Assembly (NCBI GenBank): GCA_965232605.1
Contig: CBDDQA010000003.1
Location: 337,618-401,617 of the forward strand
Reading direction: 5' to 3'
DNA from: an uncultured Candidatus Binatia bacterium
Lineage (GTDB): Bacteria > Desulfobacterota > Binatia > Bin18
DNA: 64,000 bases
Numbering within the stretch: the first letter of the stretch is position 1; each line of letters starts with the position of its first letter. Both the position numbers and the translations under genes were made by a program. The notes below the pieces were generated by a model. That model was not told the DNA's origin. It saw only the letters and a program-made list of their open reading frames with translations, and ran no database searches. Positions 19,325 through 60,127 of this stretch are shown here, one piece after another.

Positions 19325-19822
19325 TTACTCCTCCGGCTTACGAAACTGGTCGTGACAGCCCTTACATGTTCCGAACATCTTTTGCATATGTTCTTTGACC
19401 GAGGCGGCATTGTTTTCTCCCGCAGCCACGGTCAGCGCGTTCGCTTCCGTACCCAACTCCGTGGCGGAGGCAATGAATGCGTCCCAGTTCTGCCAGATTT
19501 CTTCTTTGGCCCGAGAGGAATCTCCACTGCTGCCCTCGGGAAAGAGAGCGGCGACGCGAGTCGAATGCAGGGCAATAGCCGCGGCATTCATTTTGGCCTC
19601 TTCGAGCTTGCCGGCGTCAATCTTGCCTTTCATCTCCTTGGCGTTGGCCCCGATGTTGTCCATCAGATAGGTCCGAAACGCCACCGTCTGCTGCGGGTCC
19701 GGCATCTGAGTCGGATGGTTTTCGTGCCCGAAACTCAGCCCACCCAGGCTGTGCAGCCCCCCTGCCACCACACCCACACTGATGCACACTCCACGAACGA
19801 TACGAATGACTCTCCTTGTCAT
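19325..19822 (-). CDS. class II cytochrome c (cytochrome c-prime/c556-like)
   Basis: 165 aa, signal peptide, four-helix-bundle-like sequence with single C-terminal heme motif CKGCH. Confidence 0.7.
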   Translation of the reverse strand: MTRRVIRIVRGVCISVGVVAGGLHSLGGLSFGHENHPTQMPDPQQTVAFRTYLMDNIGANAKEMKGKIDAGKLEEAKMNAAAIALHSTRVAALFPEGSSGDSSRAKEEIWQNWDAFIASATELGTEANALTVAAGENNAASVKEHMQKMFGTCKGCHDQFRKPEE

Positions 19823-19852
19823 GATACTCCCTCCTCTTACGAAAGACCTGCG

Positions 19853-20758
19853 CTATTCCTGTTCTGCCTGACGCCTTGGCGCAACCGATTTCAGATATGC
19901 GGCAACAGCGTGGGCATCTTCATCCGTCATGTCTTTGTACCCGCCCCCAGGCACCCCATCAATCACCACCGCCATCAGCCCTTGGACGTTATCAAAATTC
20001 GGAAGAAACCCGGTGCGCAGCAGGGAAACGATCTCCCCTTCACTCCACCGTCCGATACCTGTCTCGTCATCCGGGGTGATATTGGGCGCGACCTCGCCGT
20101 CAATACCGGCCGGATTCCCGGCCAGGTCGCGCGTCCGGTCAAGCGTGCCAAACACCGTGCGCGGGGTATGGCATTCCTGACAATGGGCGAGGTGTTCGCT
20201 GATGTAGCGGCCTCGGGCAATGGGGTCTGCCCAAGCGGCAGACCGGGTTTCGACCGGCTCAAAAAACAGCCAGCGCCAGGCGCGCATGGCCAGCCCGGAA
20301 AACGGAAGGGAGACTTCATGGGGGAGATTTTCTTGCGCCACGGGCTCCAGGCTGCGCAGAAAGGCCACCAGCGCCGTGGCGTCTTCATCCGTCATACCGC
20401 CCAAGGCCGGATACGGCATAACCGGACTCATGACCGTCCCGTCGGGTTTCACCCCCAGCCGGATCGCATCAATGATTTCCCGGTCCGTCCAGGTTCCAAT
20501 CCCATGGACCGGGTCGGGTGTGATATTCGTTCCGTAAAACCGCCCGTAGGGGGTTTCAATCCACCGCCCACCCGCGTTGGTGGATCCCTTGGCCGCCGTA
20601 TGACAGCCGCACCCGCCGGCCAAGGCAAACACATACTGCCCCTGGGCAACGAGGGTCGCCTCATCAGCCCAGACCCTCGGTAGAGGGCTGAACAAAAAGC
20701 TGCACAGCAGCAAAAGACAGAAAAGCCGCAAAGCGCTCTTCTCGCCCGCGTTTTTCAT
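19853..20758 (-). CDS. diheme c-type cytochrome
   Basis: Signal peptide MKNAGEKSALRLFCLLLLCSFLFSPLPRVWA; two CxxCH motifs (CGCH, CQECH). Confidence 0.75.
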   Translation of the reverse strand: MKNAGEKSALRLFCLLLLCSFLFSPLPRVWADEATLVAQGQYVFALAGGCGCHTAAKGSTNAGGRWIETPYGRFYGTNITPDPVHGIGTWTDREIIDAIRLGVKPDGTVMSPVMPYPALGGMTDEDATALVAFLRSLEPVAQENLPHEVSLPFSGLAMRAWRWLFFEPVETRSAAWADPIARGRYISEHLAHCQECHTPRTVFGTLDRTRDLAGNPAGIDGEVAPNITPDDETGIGRWSEGEIVSLLRTGFLPNFDNVQGLMAVVIDGVPGGGYKDMTDEDAHAVAAYLKSVAPRRQAEQE

Positions 20759-24898: not shown

Positions 24899-26541
24899 GA
24901 CAAGCACCACCGGGCCAGACACAGGGAGTCGGCCTTGTGCCCGACCGCCTGTTCGTACGGCCACACGTAAAACACGATCATGAGTATTGTCACGACCGCG
25001 CCACAGACCATCAAACCCTTCGCGAACCACAAGGTTGTGGCGGTCAGGGAGGGATCGTATTCCGCGGGCGGCGTTTGATGGATTTGCCGGCGATACAGAT
25101 GTTCCTCCTCGGTGACCCGGCCATTGCGCGATACGAGAACAATCGTGATGAGGCTCAAGACGATGCCGATCACGAAGGGGTCGAGATACACCGGCAGGAA
25201 TATCACCTCGAAGACCGACAGGACCTTCGGGATCAGGTTGCCGACAAAGCCGACGACAATCCCCCAAAAAGCGCCGTCTGCCGTGATGCGTGTACTCCAC
25301 ACGCTCATGAAGGCCATCGGTCCCCACGACGATGCAAACAGCGTTGCCGCAAAATAGCTGATCATCATGATCGCGGGCGGCTGAAAATACGCGACGATCA
25401 GGATGACGGTCCCGACCGCCAGCATGGTGGAGCGGCTCAATCGGAGCTTGCGGCGTTCGTCGCCTTCGCCAATCTCGACCAGATCGTTCGTCGCGCTGAA
25501 TCCGATCAAGGACAGAAACGTCGACGCCGAGGACAGAGCCGCAGCCACCACGCCGGTCATGAACAACACGCCCGCATAGGTCGGCATGGTGTTGAAAGCC
25601 GCCCAGATCATGGCCCTTTCGTTGGGCTCGATATCCGGGTTGAGGAGATTGACGGCCGCGGCGGACACCACCAAGGCCCAATACAGCACCACGACCGACG
25701 CGCTCGCCAAGCAGGCCGACCGCATCACGGTGTGCTCATTTTTCGCCATCAGGTAGCGGCTCGATTGCCACGGGCTCACCGCAATCGTGAACGCCCACGC
25801 GATCCCGAGCACGAGACCCCAGCCAACCGAATCGAACGGCGTCTGCCAGCGCGCATCGGCTCCGACGACACCGTGCCAGGAGATGATTGCCGGCTTGGCT
25901 TCGTAGACCGCCAGGGACTCGATGGTGGCGAACCATCCCCCGGTCTCACCCAGGATGTAGTAGAGCGAGAGGAAACCGACGCAGGTGAACAGCAGGTACA
26001 TGACGGTATCCGTCAGCACCACGCCTCTTGAGCCGGAGTAGATCGTGAACGAGGTATAGCCGACCCAGACGATCAGCAACGTCACCTCATAGGGAATATG
26101 CATCACTTCCGATATCGCCAGTGATGCTCCCTGGGTCACCGCCAGCAAATAGGCGGTGACCCCCCCGATCACCGTCACACCGGCGGCAGCCTGAACGCGC
26201 CGACTGTTGAAGCGCTTGCCGAAGAACTCGGCCACGGTTATCGCCTGGCTGCGCCTGACATAGCGGCCGAAGAACGCCGCGCCCAGGACGTAGCCGACGA
26301 TATTGACCCCGACCAGGATCAGCAGGATCGCGCCGTGGCCCTGATAGGTAAACCCGGTTTCACCCAGGAAGGCGGCGGTGCTCAGATAGCTCGCGACCAG
26401 GGTGCCGGCTATCAGCAGGGTCGAGCTGTCACGCCCCGCAACGAAATAATCATCGACATCTTTGACCCGCCGGCCGGCGTAATTGCCGATCAGCAGATAG
26501 ATCACGATGCTCGTGATGATGCCGAAGGCGTAGGGGTTCAT
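24895..26541 (-). CDS. sodium:solute symporter (SSS) family transporter
   Basis: 548 aa, ~13 TM segments, MNPYAFGIITSIVIYLLIGNYAGRRVKDVDDYFVAGR typical SSS N-terminus; ATGA overlap with upstream gene. Confidence 0.85.
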   Translation of the reverse strand: MNPYAFGIITSIVIYLLIGNYAGRRVKDVDDYFVAGRDSSTLLIAGTLVASYLSTAAFLGETGFTYQGHGAILLILVGVNIVGYVLGAAFFGRYVRRSQAITVAEFFGKRFNSRRVQAAAGVTVIGGVTAYLLAVTQGASLAISEVMHIPYEVTLLIVWVGYTSFTIYSGSRGVVLTDTVMYLLFTCVGFLSLYYILGETGGWFATIESLAVYEAKPAIISWHGVVGADARWQTPFDSVGWGLVLGIAWAFTIAVSPWQSSRYLMAKNEHTVMRSACLASASVVVLYWALVVSAAAVNLLNPDIEPNERAMIWAAFNTMPTYAGVLFMTGVVAAALSSASTFLSLIGFSATNDLVEIGEGDERRKLRLSRSTMLAVGTVILIVAYFQPPAIMMISYFAATLFASSWGPMAFMSVWSTRITADGAFWGIVVGFVGNLIPKVLSVFEVIFLPVYLDPFVIGIVLSLITIVLVSRNGRVTEEEHLYRRQIHQTPPAEYDPSLTATTLWFAKGLMVCGAVVTILMIVFYVWPYEQAVGHKADSLCLARWCLS

Positions 26542-28241
26542 GGTACGGCCTTGGCCGTCCAGTCACCGTGCGGGCCATCGTTACTCATGACGTACGCATT
26601 GTTCCGGTTCGGGTCGCCTGCAACGGCGATCAGAAACTTCGAGGCCTCGGTCACGATCGGCACGAGGCGTTGCGGGTCGTTGGACTCGCCGAAGACCGGC
26701 GGGATCAGACCCTCGGTCGCCAGTTCGAACAGGGTGCGGCCCCCCGCATCGATGTTGCTCCACTCGCCGATGAACTGCTCGAACCTGGCCGCCGGCAGCC
26801 GGGCCTGCACGAACAGCGCCCGCTTGACGTCATCCTTGCCCCAGCCGGATCGGGCGAAGGTGCGCGCCAGCATCGGGGAAAGGATCAACAGCGGTCGATA
26901 ATGGCCCTGTCCGAGTCCGTAGATGTGCGCGAGGTCCCAGCCACTGACTCGAACGAGGCCGTCGGCCAGATACGGCACGAGCGCCTCGCCCGTCGATCCG
27001 AAGACGCTGCCGAGGATCAGGCTGCTATTCATGCGGACCATGGTGACCACGTCGTCGTCCCGCCCGAACCCGAACTCCGCACTCAGCGGTTGCCAGCCGA
27101 TGTCGGTCAGCGTCTGCTCATCTTCGGCCAATACCACCCGGGTGCTGTTACCGAACGTGGCCTTGTCGTGTTCGTCGACGGTGAATCCACAGACATTGCG
27201 CAGGTACAGCCGGAGCCATCGGGCGACGCTGGTATTGGCATGGGCGCCCTCCCGAAGGACACCCTGCCGGGCGTTGAAGCCGAGTTCGGCCATCGACGGC
27301 CCATTAACGATGACGAGGGCGTCGGCCCCGGTGGTATTACCCGAGTGCTCGACGCCGTAACCGGGATCGGCGATGATTTCGGCGAGCGCCAAGAGCACGG
27401 GCAGGTGCCGGGGCTGACAGCCGGTCATGACGGCATTGACGGCAACCGACCAGACCGTGATATCGCGGCCCGAGGGTCGGGCGGTGCCGATTACTCTCCA
27501 GGGGTCATCGTTCAGCGCGGCGAGAAACGCCGCGACCCGGTCCTGGGTCGGCGGAACGACCGGCAGTCCATCGCTCCAGCCCTCAACGGTGAAACGTTCG
27601 TTGATCTCGTCAATCGTTCCCGTGGCGACGACGTCCAGTGGCGCGGGCTCGGCGGCAGCGGCCTCACCGACGACCGGCGCGCTGGTGAGGCCGGCTATGA
27701 TCTGGTCGAGCGTCGCGTCGCGCAGGGAACCGATCATCTCGTCGTAGCTCTGCGCGTCCACGTGTCCGCGCAGCACGCCGAGGGGAAGCCCGTCGAATCC
27801 CGCGCCGCGACCAGTGGCCGCCGCCTGGCGTTCGAACCCTTCGCAGACCAGCGACACCGATGGTACCCCGGCGGCTTCCGCGACAACCGACGCCCGCATC
27901 ACGGCGGGCGTACAACTCCCTCAACATCCCACCCCGGAGACGACGGCGTCGATACCGCGGTCGCGCAACCGGTTGGGGAGGGCGGCAATCACCTCGGCTT
28001 CATCACCCCCGTGCGTGTTGCCGAATTCATCGTACCCGACGATTTCGATCCCGGTGAAGCGGTGCTGCAGATCTTTCTCGATGACCGGAAAAAGCTCGTG
28101 ACCGCGAAACAGGAAATCCCACAGAAACCCGACGCGTTTGCCCTCGAGCGTGTCGAGCCGCTCGGCGAGATGCCGTGGCTGTACCGCGAGCGGCGATTTC
28201 GGCCAGACGACTTCGTAGTGAATTGCGCTATGTGAACTCAT
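26538..28241 (-). CDS. UGSC-family selenoprotein domain fused in-frame to a ~450-aa uncharacterised domain (GWSDGLPVVPPT family); in-frame TGA at comp(27921..27923) read as Sec
   Basis: Track ORFs 27921..28241 and 26538..27902 are in the same frame, separated only by TGA; read-through gives ...AVVSGVGC-U-GSCTPAVMRASVV...; SECIS-like hairpin follows. Confidence 0.6.
27890..27911 (-). promoter_or_regulatory. SECIS-like hairpin 9 nt downstream of UGA (ACGCCCGC-CGUGAU-GCGGGCGU)
   Basis: Perfect 8-bp stem, GU-containing 6-nt loop, position typical of bacterial SECIS. Confidence 0.5.
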
Positions 28242-32290: not shown

Positions 32291-32645
32291 TGGTGGAGGC
32301 GGCGGGAATCGAACCCGCGTCCGAAAGTAGTCCACTCAAGGCATCTACAATGCGTAGCTCGTATTTTGATCTCATCCTCGGGCCTCCTACGAGCAGGATG
32401 CCCTCAGACCAGCCAAAGTAGAGTTTCGGGCGCGCACCCTTCGGCACGATGCAAACCCTATCCCGATTTGTGTCGCCTTAGCCGACCCTACGGGCGCGGA
32501 TCGGTAAGACGCAAGCTGCTCTAGGCAGCAAGAGCGTAGTCAAAATCGTCTGCAGTTAAATTGCAGCCTGTCCGTTTTACGGGCGGGACAGAACCCCGGC
32601 ATGCAGCCTTGGCTTTCTAGCCCCCGTCGAAACCAGATCGCCCCC
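32291..32645 (-). ncRNA. ssrA: tmRNA (SsrA), tag peptide reading frame A-DDFDYALAA-stop
   Basis: 5' end GGGGGCGAUCUGGUUUCGACGGGGG, 3' tRNA-like end GGACGCGGGUUCGAUUCCCGCCGCCUCCACCA; internal GCAGACGATTTTGACTACGCTCTTGCTGCCTAG; adjacent smpB. Confidence 0.8.
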
Positions 32646-55092: not shown

Positions 55093-55100
55093 AATGCGAC

Positions 55101-55138
55101 ACCCTCTCCCCTGGAGGGAGAGGGCCGGGGTGAGGGGG
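55101..55138. repeat. REP-like element (family B): CCCTCTCCC-ctgga-GGGAGAGGG + CCGGGGTGAGGGGG
   Basis: Copies also at 58126..58166, 61917..61978 (variant), 63222..63260 (inverted, partial). Confidence 0.45.
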
Positions 55139-56885: not shown

Positions 56886-56997
56886 CGCAACGCGGGCTTG
56901 GTGTTGTCACACATTTAACGATTTTTGAGGCCGACCAGCTTGGCCAGCAGGTTCGCCAGACACGCAACGCGGGCTTGGTGTTGTCACGCATTTAACG
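56886..56997. repeat. two copies of ~35-nt direct repeat CGCAACGCGGGCTTGGTGTTGTCAC(A/G)CATTTAACG, period 77 bp
   Basis: 56886-56920 and 56963-56997, one mismatch. Confidence 0.4.
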
Positions 56998-57022: not shown

Positions 57023-58105
57023 CTAACGACGAAACTCTTGAATGGACGTGGCCGGCCGGCCGTCCTTGAGGGCAATCTGACGGGTCACGGAGCGGGTCAT
57101 GGCCCCGAACGTGGGCATCCAGCACGAGTGGCGACCCGGACCGCCGACGACAAGAATCATGAGCCGTTCCGGCTGGCGAATCAGCGGGATGGCGGCGGCG
57201 GCGGGAAAGGCCTCATCGGGGGTAAATCCCATGCCGATCATGCCGCCGGCCTCCCATTGTTCGCGCGGCACCCGGGCGTGCTCAAACACATAGGCGCGGA
57301 TGTCCTCTTTTGAGAGGCCGTCTCGGGCCAGGATTTCGGCGTGCTCCGGTCCGAGCGCCAGAATCGGCTCACCGAACGCGTAGGCGTTATTCGAGCCCAT
57401 ACCGGCCATGGTGCTGGCGATGGTCGTCAGAATCCCCGGCGCGGCACTGCTGATATGGTCGTTGATATTATGCGGCCCTTCCGCCCCGCACACCGTGACC
57501 GTGCTGGTCTCGGCTGCAAGGCCGCGTTCGACGTGCAGTGGCCCCCAAGGGTTTTCTTCCTCGTTCTCGGCAATGCAATAGCTGTACTTTGCGGGTTGGC
57601 CCTGGGTTGAGCGGTCCAGCATACCCGGCGTTCCCCCGCCGACATTCAGCAGGACCAGACGAATCGCCCGGCCGATTGTGGCGTTTGGCCGCCAGCCCTG
57701 GCCAAAGGCGTTATAGCGCGAGTTGACGCCGATTTCCGTCGCAATCGGGCCGTTGAGAATCAGCAGCGGCGCGCAGGGATGGGTGGTGCTCTGGACTCCG
57801 TACAGATTGAACGGGCCTTCGAGCAGCGCCTCGACCGCGGCAATAATGACCGGAAAGTATTCGGGGACACAACCGGCCATCACTGCGTTCACGGCCAGTT
57901 TTTCCAGGGTGGCCAGGCCGTATTTGGGCGGTATCGGTCCCAGGACGTCTTGGGGAGCGCGGTCCGTCCAGGCCAGCATCGTTTCCACCCGCTCTGGTGT
58001 GGGCGGAATAATCGGCAGACCGTCGGTCCAGCCCTGGTCGTAAAACCAGTCGTTGACAGCTTCGAGAGCGTCGTCCAGAGAGATGCGGTCTGATTGGAAA
58101 TGCAT
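57023..58105 (-). CDS. uncharacterised protein, paralog of the C-terminal domain of the 26538..28241 gene (GWTDGLPIIPPT family)
   Basis: MHFQSDRISLDDALEAVNDWFYDQGWTDGLPIIPPTPERV...LAVNAVMAGC...LLILNGP; start trimmed to ATG 58105 because track N-terminus (MTPLPRPSPSRGEG) is a translated REP element. Confidence 0.7.
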   Translation of the reverse strand: MHFQSDRISLDDALEAVNDWFYDQGWTDGLPIIPPTPERVETMLAWTDRAPQDVLGPIPPKYGLATLEKLAVNAVMAGCVPEYFPVIIAAVEALLEGPFNLYGVQSTTHPCAPLLILNGPIATEIGVNSRYNAFGQGWRPNATIGRAIRLVLLNVGGGTPGMLDRSTQGQPAKYSYCIAENEEENPWGPLHVERGLAAETSTVTVCGAEGPHNINDHISSAAPGILTTIASTMAGMGSNNAYAFGEPILALGPEHAEILARDGLSKEDIRAYVFEHARVPREQWEAGGMIGMGFTPDEAFPAAAAIPLIRQPERLMILVVGGPGRHSCWMPTFGAMTRSVTRQIALKDGRPATSIQEFRR

Positions 58106-58168
58106 GACGCCACTGCTCTCTTCGACCCCCTCTCCCCTGGAGGGAGAGGGCCGGGGTAAGGGGGTCAA

Positions 58169-58768
58169 TTACGCTGACACCCGCTCGATCTTTTTCTCCA
58201 TCGGCTTGAGAAACCGCCCGCGATACGCGTCGGCCAACTGTTCTGCCGGCTGGGTCAGAATAGCCAGAATTTCATCCACCACGGCCGCGGCCTTGGCCTG
58301 CACCACCTGCGGCGTATTGCCGGCCAGGGGATGGGGAATCACGGCAATGGGCACCCCGCTCATACCCAGGGTGCGGGACTCGGCCCGACCGAGCGGAGCA
58401 AACTCGTCGCTGCAAATAATGGCGGTCGGAACGCCTTGCTTTTCCAGTTCAATGGTGTCGTGGAGACCCCACGACGTACACGAGCCTCAATCGCCTATGG
58501 CCACGACAACCGCATCACAGGTTGACAGGCGGGCCAGAACTTCCTTGGGTGCGCCGAGCGAGGCGTTTTTCTCACCCTTGATGACGGCGAAGTCCCCGCA
58601 ACGTTCGTGCAGCAGCGTTTCCACCTGTTCGAGCAGCAGGCCGGCGTTGGCCTTCCGGTTATTCAGAAAACCAATGGTTTTCCCGCGCAGGCTCCCCTCT
58701 CGTCGGGCAAGCGGCAGGTCACCGGCTTGCGCCTCTCCAATTGGGCTGAGGACTTCAATCTGTCCCAT
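58169..58768 (-). CDS. UGSC-family selenoprotein (~200 aa), in-frame TGA comp(58487..58489) read as Sec
   Basis: ORFs 58487..58774 and 58169..58363 share one frame; read-through ...AVVVAIGD-U-GSCTSWGLHDTIELEKQGVPTAIICSDEF...; GGGAGG RBS before ATG 58768; homologous to 27921..28241 ORF. Confidence 0.65.
58457..58475 (-). promoter_or_regulatory. SECIS-like hairpin 12 nt after UGA (GUCGUGG-GGUCU-CCACGAC)
   Basis: 7-bp perfect stem; GGUC loop resembles the E. coli fdhF SECIS apical loop. Confidence 0.5.
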
Positions 58769-58872: not shown

Positions 58873-59478
58873 ATGGCGAACGTCAAAATCCCGGTTTACT
58901 ACGATTATGCCTCTTCCCTCAGCTATATCGCCAAGCGCGTGCTGGAACAGCTTGACGGTCAACTCGCAATCGAACTGTTGTGGAAAGGCCTCAACATTGC
59001 TCGCCGTCACCAGGGCTGGAAGAACGGCGAGATGATCGGAGACGAGGCCAAAGGCAAAATTGTTCGCATCTCGCGCGAGACCGGCGTCCCGCTGCGCATC
59101 CCGACAAAATGGCTGGACTCGGCCCATGCCTTGGAAGCGGCCGAATTCGCCAAAGGCCACAATCTGTTTGCCGCCTATCACGAGGCGATTTTTGTGGCCG
59201 CGTTTGAGGCAGAGCAGGATATTGGCGAGCGGTCTGTTTTGCTTGGCGTGGCCGAACAGGTGGGCTTACCCGTGGCGGAATTGGAGCAGTCGCTACAATC
59301 CGGCGAACTGACCCAGCGGGTCCGGGCAACCGAACAGGAAGCCGCCAGGTTTGGCATAGTCGGCTATCCCACCTTTCTGCTCGGCGAATTTCCGTTGATT
59401 GGCATTCAGCCGGCGGAAACCATGCGCCTGCTGATTCAGCGCTATGTTGATAAAGCGCGCGAGCAGGTGGGGCATTAG
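58873..59478 (+). CDS. DsbA-like thioredoxin-fold protein lacking the CxxC motif (HCCA-isomerase-like)
   Basis: [20 protein letters not shown]... (SSLS in place of CPxC) ...[10 protein letters not shown]; divergent from UGSC gene. Confidence 0.65.
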
Positions 59479-59531: not shown

Positions 59532-59771
59532 ATGAATTACCAGGATCGGATTATCCGTGACCCACGAGTCTGTGGCGGCCAACCGGTCATCAAAGGGACA
59601 CGAGTAACGCTCGGCACGGTGTTAGCGAGCTTAGCCGAGGGAGCCAGCATCGCAGAAATCCTGACCGATTTTCCCTCGCTCGCCGAAGAAGACGTTCGTG
59701 CGGCAATCGCTTTTGCCGCGGCTTCTGCCCACGAAGACCTTCCCGTTCCCGGCGTTCCAGATAATCTGTGA
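59532..59771 (+). CDS. DUF433-domain protein (antitoxin-like)
   Basis: RVCGGQPVIKGTRVTLGTVLASLAEGASIAEILTDFPSLAEEDVRAAIAFAA. Confidence 0.7.
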   Translation: MNYQDRIIRDPRVCGGQPVIKGTRVTLGTVLASLAEGASIAEILTDFPSLAEEDVRAAIAFAAASAHEDLPVPGVPDNL

Positions 59772-60127
59772 AGATCAAGCTAGACGAAAATCTCCCCACA
59801 ACACTCGCCCATGATCTGACAAGATTAGGTCATGACTGTGATACGGTCATTGAAGAAGGGCTGAAGGGTCAACCCGATTCCGTCGTGTTGAGTTCGGCTC
59901 AACACAATCACCGTTTTCTTATTACTCAGGACCTTGACTTCTCCGATATTCGGAAGTTCAAGCCTGGATCGCACGCCGGCATTCTGCTTGTCCGCCTCAG
60001 CCTCCCAGGACGACAGGCTTTAGCAAATCGTATCCGACAAATTTTTACGACTGAAGATGTTGAGAGTTGGACCCAGTGTTTCGTAGTGGCAACAGAGCGT
60101 AAGGTCCGTATACGCCGGCCTCGCTAA
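59768..60127 (+). CDS. DUF5615-domain (PIN-like/Mut7-C-like) protein, putative toxin partner
   Basis: MKIKLDENLPTTLAHDLTRLGHDCDTV...; 4-nt overlap with DUF433 gene. Confidence 0.7.
   Translation: MKIKLDENLPTTLAHDLTRLGHDCDTVIEEGLKGQPDSVVLSSAQHNHRFLITQDLDFSDIRKFKPGSHAGILLVRLSLPGRQALANRIRQIFTTEDVESWTQCFVVATERKVRIRRPR

Follow-up and report, generated by a model that had tools for sequence, protein, structure and literature searches.

The locus described here raises a question that has long accompanied the UGSC-containing proteins, namely what these selenoproteins do. The family has been known since 2007-2008, as the 'UGSC-containing protein' of Zhang and Gladyshev (PMC1976440, PMC2398784), and its members belong to the selenoproteins that abound most in metagenomes from oceans and fresh water (the 2008 Global Ocean Sampling paper, PMC2398784); a 2026 review still places UGSC among the selenoproteins whose biological functions are largely uncharacterized (PMC13188914), in agreement with the initial annotation of this DNA, which had described the system as uncharacterized. 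In a 64-kb stretch of contig CBDDQA010000003.1 from an uncultured Candidatus Binatia bacterium (hereinafter the window, that is, the whole stretch of DNA that was analyzed), a UGSC gene with an in-frame TGA is followed, on the minus strand, by a gene encoding a member of an orphan protein family (hereinafter the partner), and a paralogous gene in which the UGSC and partner parts are fused is located elsewhere in the same window. We found that UGSC and the partner form one unit, often a single polypeptide, and the two proteins probably work as one two-part enzyme.

A selenocysteine codon and its insertion element

The UGSC gene at comp(58169..58768) consists of 199 codons (199 aa) and, upon translation, contains a single in-frame stop, the TGA at 58487..58489 on the minus strand, which corresponds to selenocysteine (Sec) 94, the first residue of the U-G-S-C motif in the peptide ...VVVAIGD-U-GSCTSWGLHD...; the in-frame TGA in the context AIGD-U-GSCTSWG, as initially annotated, is thereby confirmed. 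A profile search with this protein, in which U was written as C, identified a match to PF24696 ('UGSC family') over residues 5-173 (E-value 1.8e-50, 171.9 bits against a cut-off of 25) that crosses the TGA uninterrupted, and a match to NF041046 ('UGSC family (seleno)protein') with 142.6 bits, which exceeds the curated cut-off (125). The U/C-G-S-C motif is present, and across 48 aligned UGSC sequences its first position is invariably Cys or Sec. The closely similar chromosome OY761159.2, a Candidatus Binatia metagenome-assembled genome (MAG), shows approximately 87% nucleotide identity to the locus and shares its gene order. We conclude that comp(58169..58768) is a genuine Sec-encoding gene of an already catalogued family. 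No tRNA-Sec was found in a search of the 64-kb window that covered tRNAs only, and no selA, selB or selD gene was identified there.

Of the 78 UGSC copies located beside partner genes, 67 have TGA at the U position, 10 encode Cys there (the hosts of these Cys forms include Natrialba, Methanobacterium and Sphingomonas) and one has TAG. The interchange of Sec and Cys in a single alignment column is the classical signature that marks a catalytic redox residue. The TAG copy comes from Blastococcus sp. CT_GayMR19 (L060:3678-3737, NZ_SPQL01000008.1), where the peptide VAVGD-*-GSCSSW is followed by the same hairpin that is described below; recoding of UAG to Sec has been reported for Geodermatophilaceae, and the Blastococcus codon would fit this pattern. 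In several other copies (U-G-S-S in L066 and L073, C/U-G-T-S in L071 and L072), the second cysteine of the motif is gone, and the respective partners keep both of their conserved cysteines.

The Sec insertion sequence (SECIS) is a hairpin at 58457..58475 on the minus strand, that is, positions +15 to +33 counted from the U of the UGA, with an 8-bp helix that includes a G-U closing pair and an apical GUC. Alternatively, it can be described as a 7-bp stem (GUCGUGG/CCACGAC) with a GGUCU loop, which starts 11-12 nt past the UGA. Taken alone, the hairpin of the window has no folding advantage over shuffled sequence (z = 0.5). The SECIS was assessed in a gap-free alignment of the 60 nt that start from the recoded codon, with 64 sequences (63 orthologous genes and the window). 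In this alignment, 96.3% of the cells of the helix (columns 15-22 with columns 26-33) are paired, compensatory changes on both sides occur in five of the eight pairs (21 cells), and the loop nucleotides G23 and U24 are invariant; none of the 500 column shuffles equaled this helix, and the slid controls were also far off. The stem is located within a conserved coding peptide, T-S-W-x-x-H-D, so the conservation is partly protein-driven. The compensatory changes, such as GUGG/CCAC to GUGC/GCAC where Trp is replaced by Cys, and GUCG/CGAC to GGCG/CGCC or AUCG/CGAU, argue that selection acts on the RNA. Thus, the hairpin with the GGUCU loop that had been noted from the single sequence is real, and the UGA is recoded to Sec via this conserved element. 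No Rfam family matched the SECIS. It resembles the Escherichia coli fdhF-type SECIS in that the hairpin directly follows the UGA on the 3' side and the G-U of the apical loop is invariant at +23/+24, and differs from it in that there is no evident bulged U and the stem lies inside conserved coding sequence; the loop of the window hairpin contains GGUC, as does that of fdhF.

An orphan partner family linked to UGSC

The partner gene occupies 57023..58105 on the minus strand and encodes a protein of 360 aa. The mechanically called open reading frame (ORF) begins with a TTG at 58168 and runs through the palindrome located between the two genes. The partner homologs are 360-366 aa long, which makes the ATG at 58105 the credible start and supports the initial view that the N-terminal extension is false.

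A scan for partner genes in one genome per GTDB species detected at least 597 encoding stretches, and linkage was counted in the best 80 of these loci. These span Binatia, Acidimicrobiales, Dehalococcoidia, other Chloroflexi, Rokubacteria/Methylomirabilota, Burkholderiales, other Proteobacteria, Poribacteria, Nitrospinota, Acidobacteriota and Entotheonella, with cultured or named hosts that include Blastococcus, Robertmurraya, Natrialba and Methanobacterium. UGSC genes within 4 kb of the partner were detected using tblastn and a hidden Markov model (HMM) derived from 48 UGSC sequences, and are present at 70 of the 80 loci; four loci have no upstream DNA, which leaves 70 of 76 testable loci (92%). 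The most common arrangement among the 79 UGSC copies is a gene directly upstream of the partner on the same strand (44 copies, with a median gap of approximately 70 nt), followed by an in-frame fusion (21 copies) and a gene directly downstream of the partner (12 copies); of the remaining two copies, one lies on the opposite strand and the other at a distance of more than 1 kb. The linkage also holds in the reverse direction: look-ups that started from three unrelated Cys-form UGSC proteins revealed, in all three cases, an immediately downstream gene for a protein of 349-360 residues without a Pfam domain that matches the partner HMM at 1e-82 to 1e-139. Co-occurrence of the two families, which had been proposed as a check of the initial annotation, is therefore far above background, and the pairing or fusion recurs in numerous lineages of both Bacteria and Archaea.

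Six of the partner genes lack a UGSC neighbor within 4 kb (L048, L061, L063, L067, L077 and L080; four of the six are from Poribacteria). Loss of C79 was not observed in these proteins, all six of which keep both C79 and C177. At five of these loci (the four from Poribacteria and L080), the HMM match stops approximately 270 residues in, and in three of them it resumes in another frame; these genes could represent a shorter variant or a frameshift.

The novelty of the locus is lower than the initial annotation implied, given that the UGSC family is curated in Pfam and NCBIfam and that its fusion to a conserved domain, named 'Unknown_1', was reported in 2008 (PMC2398784), a domain that may or may not be the partner. 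What is added here is that UGSC is linked, almost obligately and in both directions, to an orphan family of very large size; in the literature, we found no documentation of such a linkage between UGSC and a separate partner gene. A word-indexed search for relatives of the partner retrieved no fewer than 7998 clusters at 90% identity; every one of them is unnamed or denoted 'hypothetical protein', and among the clusters listed none has a Pfam domain in the partner region. An exhaustive phmmer search of 1.84 billion representatives at 50% identity yielded 6010 matches at E <= 1e-3 and 1585 at E <= 1e-30. Two length classes, each with many of these representatives, are fusions: in proteins of 530-570 aa, the partner region starts at residue ~205-220, and these are UGSC::partner fusions in which a Cys codon lets the frame continue, and in proteins of 410-460 aa, it starts at residue ~77-108, and these are fusions in which the gene call begins after the TGA. 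In public protein collections, gene callers systematically cut the UGSC protein at the TGA into fragments of ~93 and 64-110 aa and shorten the Sec-form fusions to ~410-460 aa, so that family statistics based on predicted proteins are biased toward the Cys forms. The present result corrects the annotation of the UGSC genes and of the fusions.

For 58 diverse partner proteins, we detected no consistent Pfam or NCBIfam match at E <= 0.1, and a comparison of partner profiles with the sequences in the PDB revealed nothing credible at permissive thresholds. An AlphaFold2 model of the partner, produced from an alignment of 33 sequences, has a predicted local distance difference test score (pLDDT) of 89.1 and a predicted template modeling score (pTM) of 0.90. 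A Foldseek search with this model retrieved class I fumarate hydratase at low template modeling scores (0.19-0.33; best E-value 5.6e-4), a weak resemblance that we treat as a lead and not as homology; the confident partner model thus has no close counterpart among solved folds. Comparison of partner segments with hhalign detected no internal duplication.

Across 101 partner copies, D28, G29 and P31 of the DGLP motif, R146 and E180 are present in all sequences, D164 in 100, C79 in 99, N73 in 98, R149 in 93 and C177 in 88. This pattern of conservation resembles that of an enzyme pocket in which a Cys, nucleophilic or redox-active, is combined with acid/base residues and with arginines suited to a carboxylate.

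A possible two-subunit selenoenzyme and the alternatives

The structure of UGSC was approached through a Cys-containing homolog with 52% identity, which was modeled from an alignment of 55 sequences (pLDDT 88.5). The model is a parallel-sheet alpha/beta/alpha structure in which the C/U-G-x-C motif is located where strand 3 ends and a long helix begins; accordingly modeled, the UGSC fold is predicted to be flavodoxin-like and not thioredoxin-like. Sequence searches identified no solved relative of UGSC. Weak, local similarity to the GrdB model TIGR01917 was detected in 30 of the 48 UGSC proteins (best E-value 1e-5), and a smaller number show such similarity to the GrdF, GrdH, TIGR01918 and PrdB models. 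The matches fall on profile positions ~329-401, the presumed Sec-carrying region of those proteins. Judging from these matches, UGSC would work in the manner of the portion of the Stickland 'protein B' subunits that holds the Sec, and may be a remote relative of it; UGSC falls outside the GrdB/PrdB family.

The comparison with these systems is instructive in both directions. In GrdB, GrdF, GrdH and PrdB, as in UGSC, the Sec is part of a U-x-x-C motif, and the local similarity surrounds this residue. GrdB and PrdB each act together with a protein encoded by the neighboring gene (PMC11229817, PMC9908766), and UGSC likewise adjoins the partner gene. In the PrdA/PrdB case, PrdA holds the proline, the alpha-carbon of which is attacked by the PrdB Sec, and the products of the two adjacent genes suffice for catalysis (PMC11229817); the Sec-containing GrdB together with GrdE is another such pair (PMC9908766). 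UGSC differs from the Stickland subunits in its size (~180-200 aa as opposed to ~430 aa in GrdB), in having a partner with no relationship to GrdE and PrdA, which are pyruvoyl proproteins, and in that the genes for GrdA, GrdC/D and PrdC are not near it.

Together with the linkage, the features added by this analysis are the putative conserved pocket of the partner, which has no solved relative, the predicted non-thioredoxin fold of UGSC and its weak link to GrdB/PrdB. An almost one-to-one linkage combined with a putative conserved partner pocket turns an 'unknown redox protein' into a concrete two-subunit enzyme hypothesis. The idea that the two genes make up an operon encoding a two-component selenoenzyme appears to us evenly balanced between being right and wrong, and no other explanation that we considered fares as well. 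Under this hypothesis, the partner would be the substrate-binding catalytic subunit, with D28, N73, C79, R146, R149, D164 and E180 as the candidate active site, and UGSC would be a flavodoxin-like redox subunit in which Sec94, at a helix N-terminus, is the first residue of the U-x-x-C motif. By analogy with GrdB/GrdE and PrdB/PrdA, the selenolate of Sec94 would attack the substrate, or an oxidized group that the partner holds, with Sec94 in putative contact with the partner. The resulting adduct would be resolved as a selenenylsulfide with Cys97 of UGSC or Cys79 of the partner, and this bond would then be re-reduced by a general thiol system, restoring the selenol. The substrate would probably be a small organic acid, amide or amine that is imported for catabolism.

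Several observations weigh against this proposal. The partner shows no similarity to GrdE, PrdA or to Pfam, NCBIfam or PDB entries, and given that it is unrelated to GrdE and PrdA, a pyruvoyl-type mechanism is unsupported. Clustering of the neighboring ORFs at the 80 loci did not find a conserved gene dedicated to electron transfer. Cys97 is missing in the U-G-S-S and C-G-T-S variants, the partners of which keep C79 and C177. All the UGSC scores for the Stickland models are far below the cut-offs (20.8 bits versus 602 for TIGR01917 and 16.3 versus 65 for TIGR01918), and PF07355 (GRDB) was not matched at E <= 0.1 by any of the 48 UGSC sequences. Finally, we presume the UGSC hosts to be largely aerobic or facultative and mostly non-fermentative, unlike the Stickland fermenters.

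Alternatively, UGSC could be a mere dedicated selenol/thiol-disulfide carrier, akin to a private thioredoxin with a flavodoxin-like fold, that recycles C79, with or without C177, of a partner that is itself the complete enzyme and holds the substrate chemistry. The placement of U-x-x-C at a helix N-terminus, the near-universal C79 and common C177 (99 and 88 of the 101 copies, respectively), and the retention of both cysteines in the partners of the Cys97-less variants are all compatible with such a role, and the six partners without a UGSC gene, which also retain C79 and C177, may use another reductant. However, one-to-one adjacency and frequent fusion (21 of the 79 copies) exceed what is usually seen with diffusible redox carriers, and the remote similarity is to GrdB and PrdB, Sec subunits that attack the substrate, and not to carriers. 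We consider the carrier role rather unlikely; it differs from the two-component selenoenzyme solely in which residue touches the substrate.

A more distant alternative is a redox-neutral pair, for example a hydro-lyase or isomerase with a small carboxylate as its substrate, in which Sec94, Cys97, C79 and C177 would bind a metal or an iron-sulfur center at the subunit interface. The four conserved Sec/Cys positions distributed over both proteins and the failure to find a conserved reductant gene near the 80 loci would suit this possibility, but C177 is absent from 13 of the 101 partners, including the fused paralog in the window, Cys97 is absent from some UGSC proteins, and we know of no natural Sec-ligated iron-sulfur cluster; such a pair seems to us distinctly improbable. 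The possibility that the TGA is a true stop, with the UGSC frame being a pseudogene or two unrelated small ORFs that are adjacent by coincidence, could appeal to the missing tRNA-Sec in the tRNA search of the window and to the unremarkable folding of the isolated hairpin, but is effectively refuted by the uninterrupted Pfam match across the TGA, the 67 orthologs with TGA and 10 with Cys at the same codon, the covariation in the SECIS helix and the 92% linkage to the partner.

Returning to the two-component selenoenzyme, we tentatively suggest, as a broader claim in which we have somewhat less than even confidence, that UGSC and the partner make up an unrecognized, very widespread class of selenium-dependent two-subunit enzymes, which would be related to the Stickland selenoprotein-B reductases, non-fermentative, and built around a novel fold in the catalytic subunit. 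If true, this new enzyme class would explain the role of one of the most abundant aquatic selenoprotein families. The long-standing functional question on UGSC becomes directly testable, in cultured hosts as well, such as Robertmurraya sp. 2P01SA, which has a fused gene in the Sec form with a product of 537 aa, and Natrialba asiatica and Microbacterium sp. G2-8, which have Cys forms.

The fused paralog and the surrounding genes

The second UGSC-partner set in the window is a UGSC::partner fusion gene at 26538..28241 on the minus strand, which encodes a protein of 567 aa, with the Sec TGA at 27921..27923 in the context GVGC-U-GSCTPA and an analogous hairpin at 27890..27911, the loop of which contains GUG. 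The fused protein scores 96.8 bits with PF24696, above the cut-off, and 43.5 bits with NF041046, below the cut-off of 125; both UGSC modules of the window match PF24696 almost end to end. As the initial annotation anticipated, formal pairwise alignment shows significant similarity for both modules: the UGSC protein of the locus at 57023..58768 aligns with residues 25-187 of the fusion (29% identity, E-value 3e-14), and its partner is a paralog of the C-terminal two thirds of the fusion (29% identity over 345 residues, E-value 8e-42). The suggestion that the two sets reflect a lineage-specific expansion does not survive this comparison: identity between the sets is as low as 29%, fused genes elsewhere resemble the fused copy more closely (42.5% identity to one in a Chloroflexi MAG, L038, and 38% to one in a Dehalococcoidia MAG, L028), and genomes with multiple copies are found in several phyla. 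Judging from these identities, the two sets belong to anciently diverged subfamilies and are not products of a recent lineage-specific duplication.

In one Chloroflexi MAG (JACPQD010000044.1, L029:3395-8846), three consecutive in-frame fusions of 559, 563 and 563 codons each have their own TGA and SECIS, and the same MAG holds further UGSC::partner copies in L038. In the window, the segment 26001..30000, which contains the fusion and amidase genes, has a G+C content of 64-65% compared to about 60% elsewhere, and may mark acquired DNA.

The fusion gene is located between genes for an amidase and a sodium:solute symporter (SSF), overlapping the symporter gene by 4 nt, and two CoA-transferase III genes are found nearby. 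Across the 80 loci, a TctC gene lies beside the pair in 16, and every other cluster of neighboring ORFs is represented at six loci or fewer. Other neighbors encountered elsewhere include short-chain dehydrogenases/reductases, MmgE/PrpD, acyl-CoA dehydrogenase, enoyl-CoA hydratase, amidohydrolases, UbiD, zinc-dependent alcohol dehydrogenase and aldehyde dehydrogenase. These surrounding genes point to the catabolism of small acids or amides. The absence of a constant third gene implies that the UGSC-partner pair is a self-contained module. An apparent neighbor cluster of 47 members was rejected as a third gene because it is an antisense shadow ORF of the partner gene.

Divergent from the UGSC gene is a DsbA-like gene at 58873..59478 on the plus strand, which encodes a protein of 201 aa that matches PF01323 (1.5e-24) and contains no cysteines; the DSBA domain is there and the CxxC active site is lacking, exactly as initially described. 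This gene was set aside as probably no part of the system, its synteny being confined to close Binatia relatives (three of the 80 loci and near-identical contigs). It is adjoined by genes for DUF433 (79 aa) and DUF5615/PIN-like (119 aa) proteins at 59532..60127, which overlap by 4 nt and resemble a toxin-antitoxin pair.

The UGSC gene is separated from the partner gene by 63 nt, which contain, at 58125..58155 on the minus strand, a palindrome with 9-bp arms, CCCTCTCCC-N5-GGGAGAGGG, that had been called a repetitive extragenic palindromic (REP) element. It is indeed repeated, with a second copy at 55099..55129 against zero expected in the 64 kb, and both copies are GC-rich, have conserved flanks and are located just upstream of a gene start, so 'REP-like' is a fair description, although two copies are all that were seen in the window. 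The palindrome is found in the same gap of the closest relative, L001, and is absent from L002, L003 and L081; its retention in the closest relative only indicates an insertion and not a functional part of the operon. The core of the palindrome also occurs in the unrelated Chloroflexi loci L021 and L048.

Further features of the window include two 35-nt direct repeats (56886..56920 and 56963..56997), which are 97% identical, 77 nt apart and located in the spacer between the partner gene and a YchF-type GTPase gene; an ORF of 443 aa at 19352..20683 without a Pfam match at E <= 0.001; and a transfer-messenger RNA (tmRNA) gene at 32291..32645 on the minus strand, with the tag peptide ADDFDYALAA.

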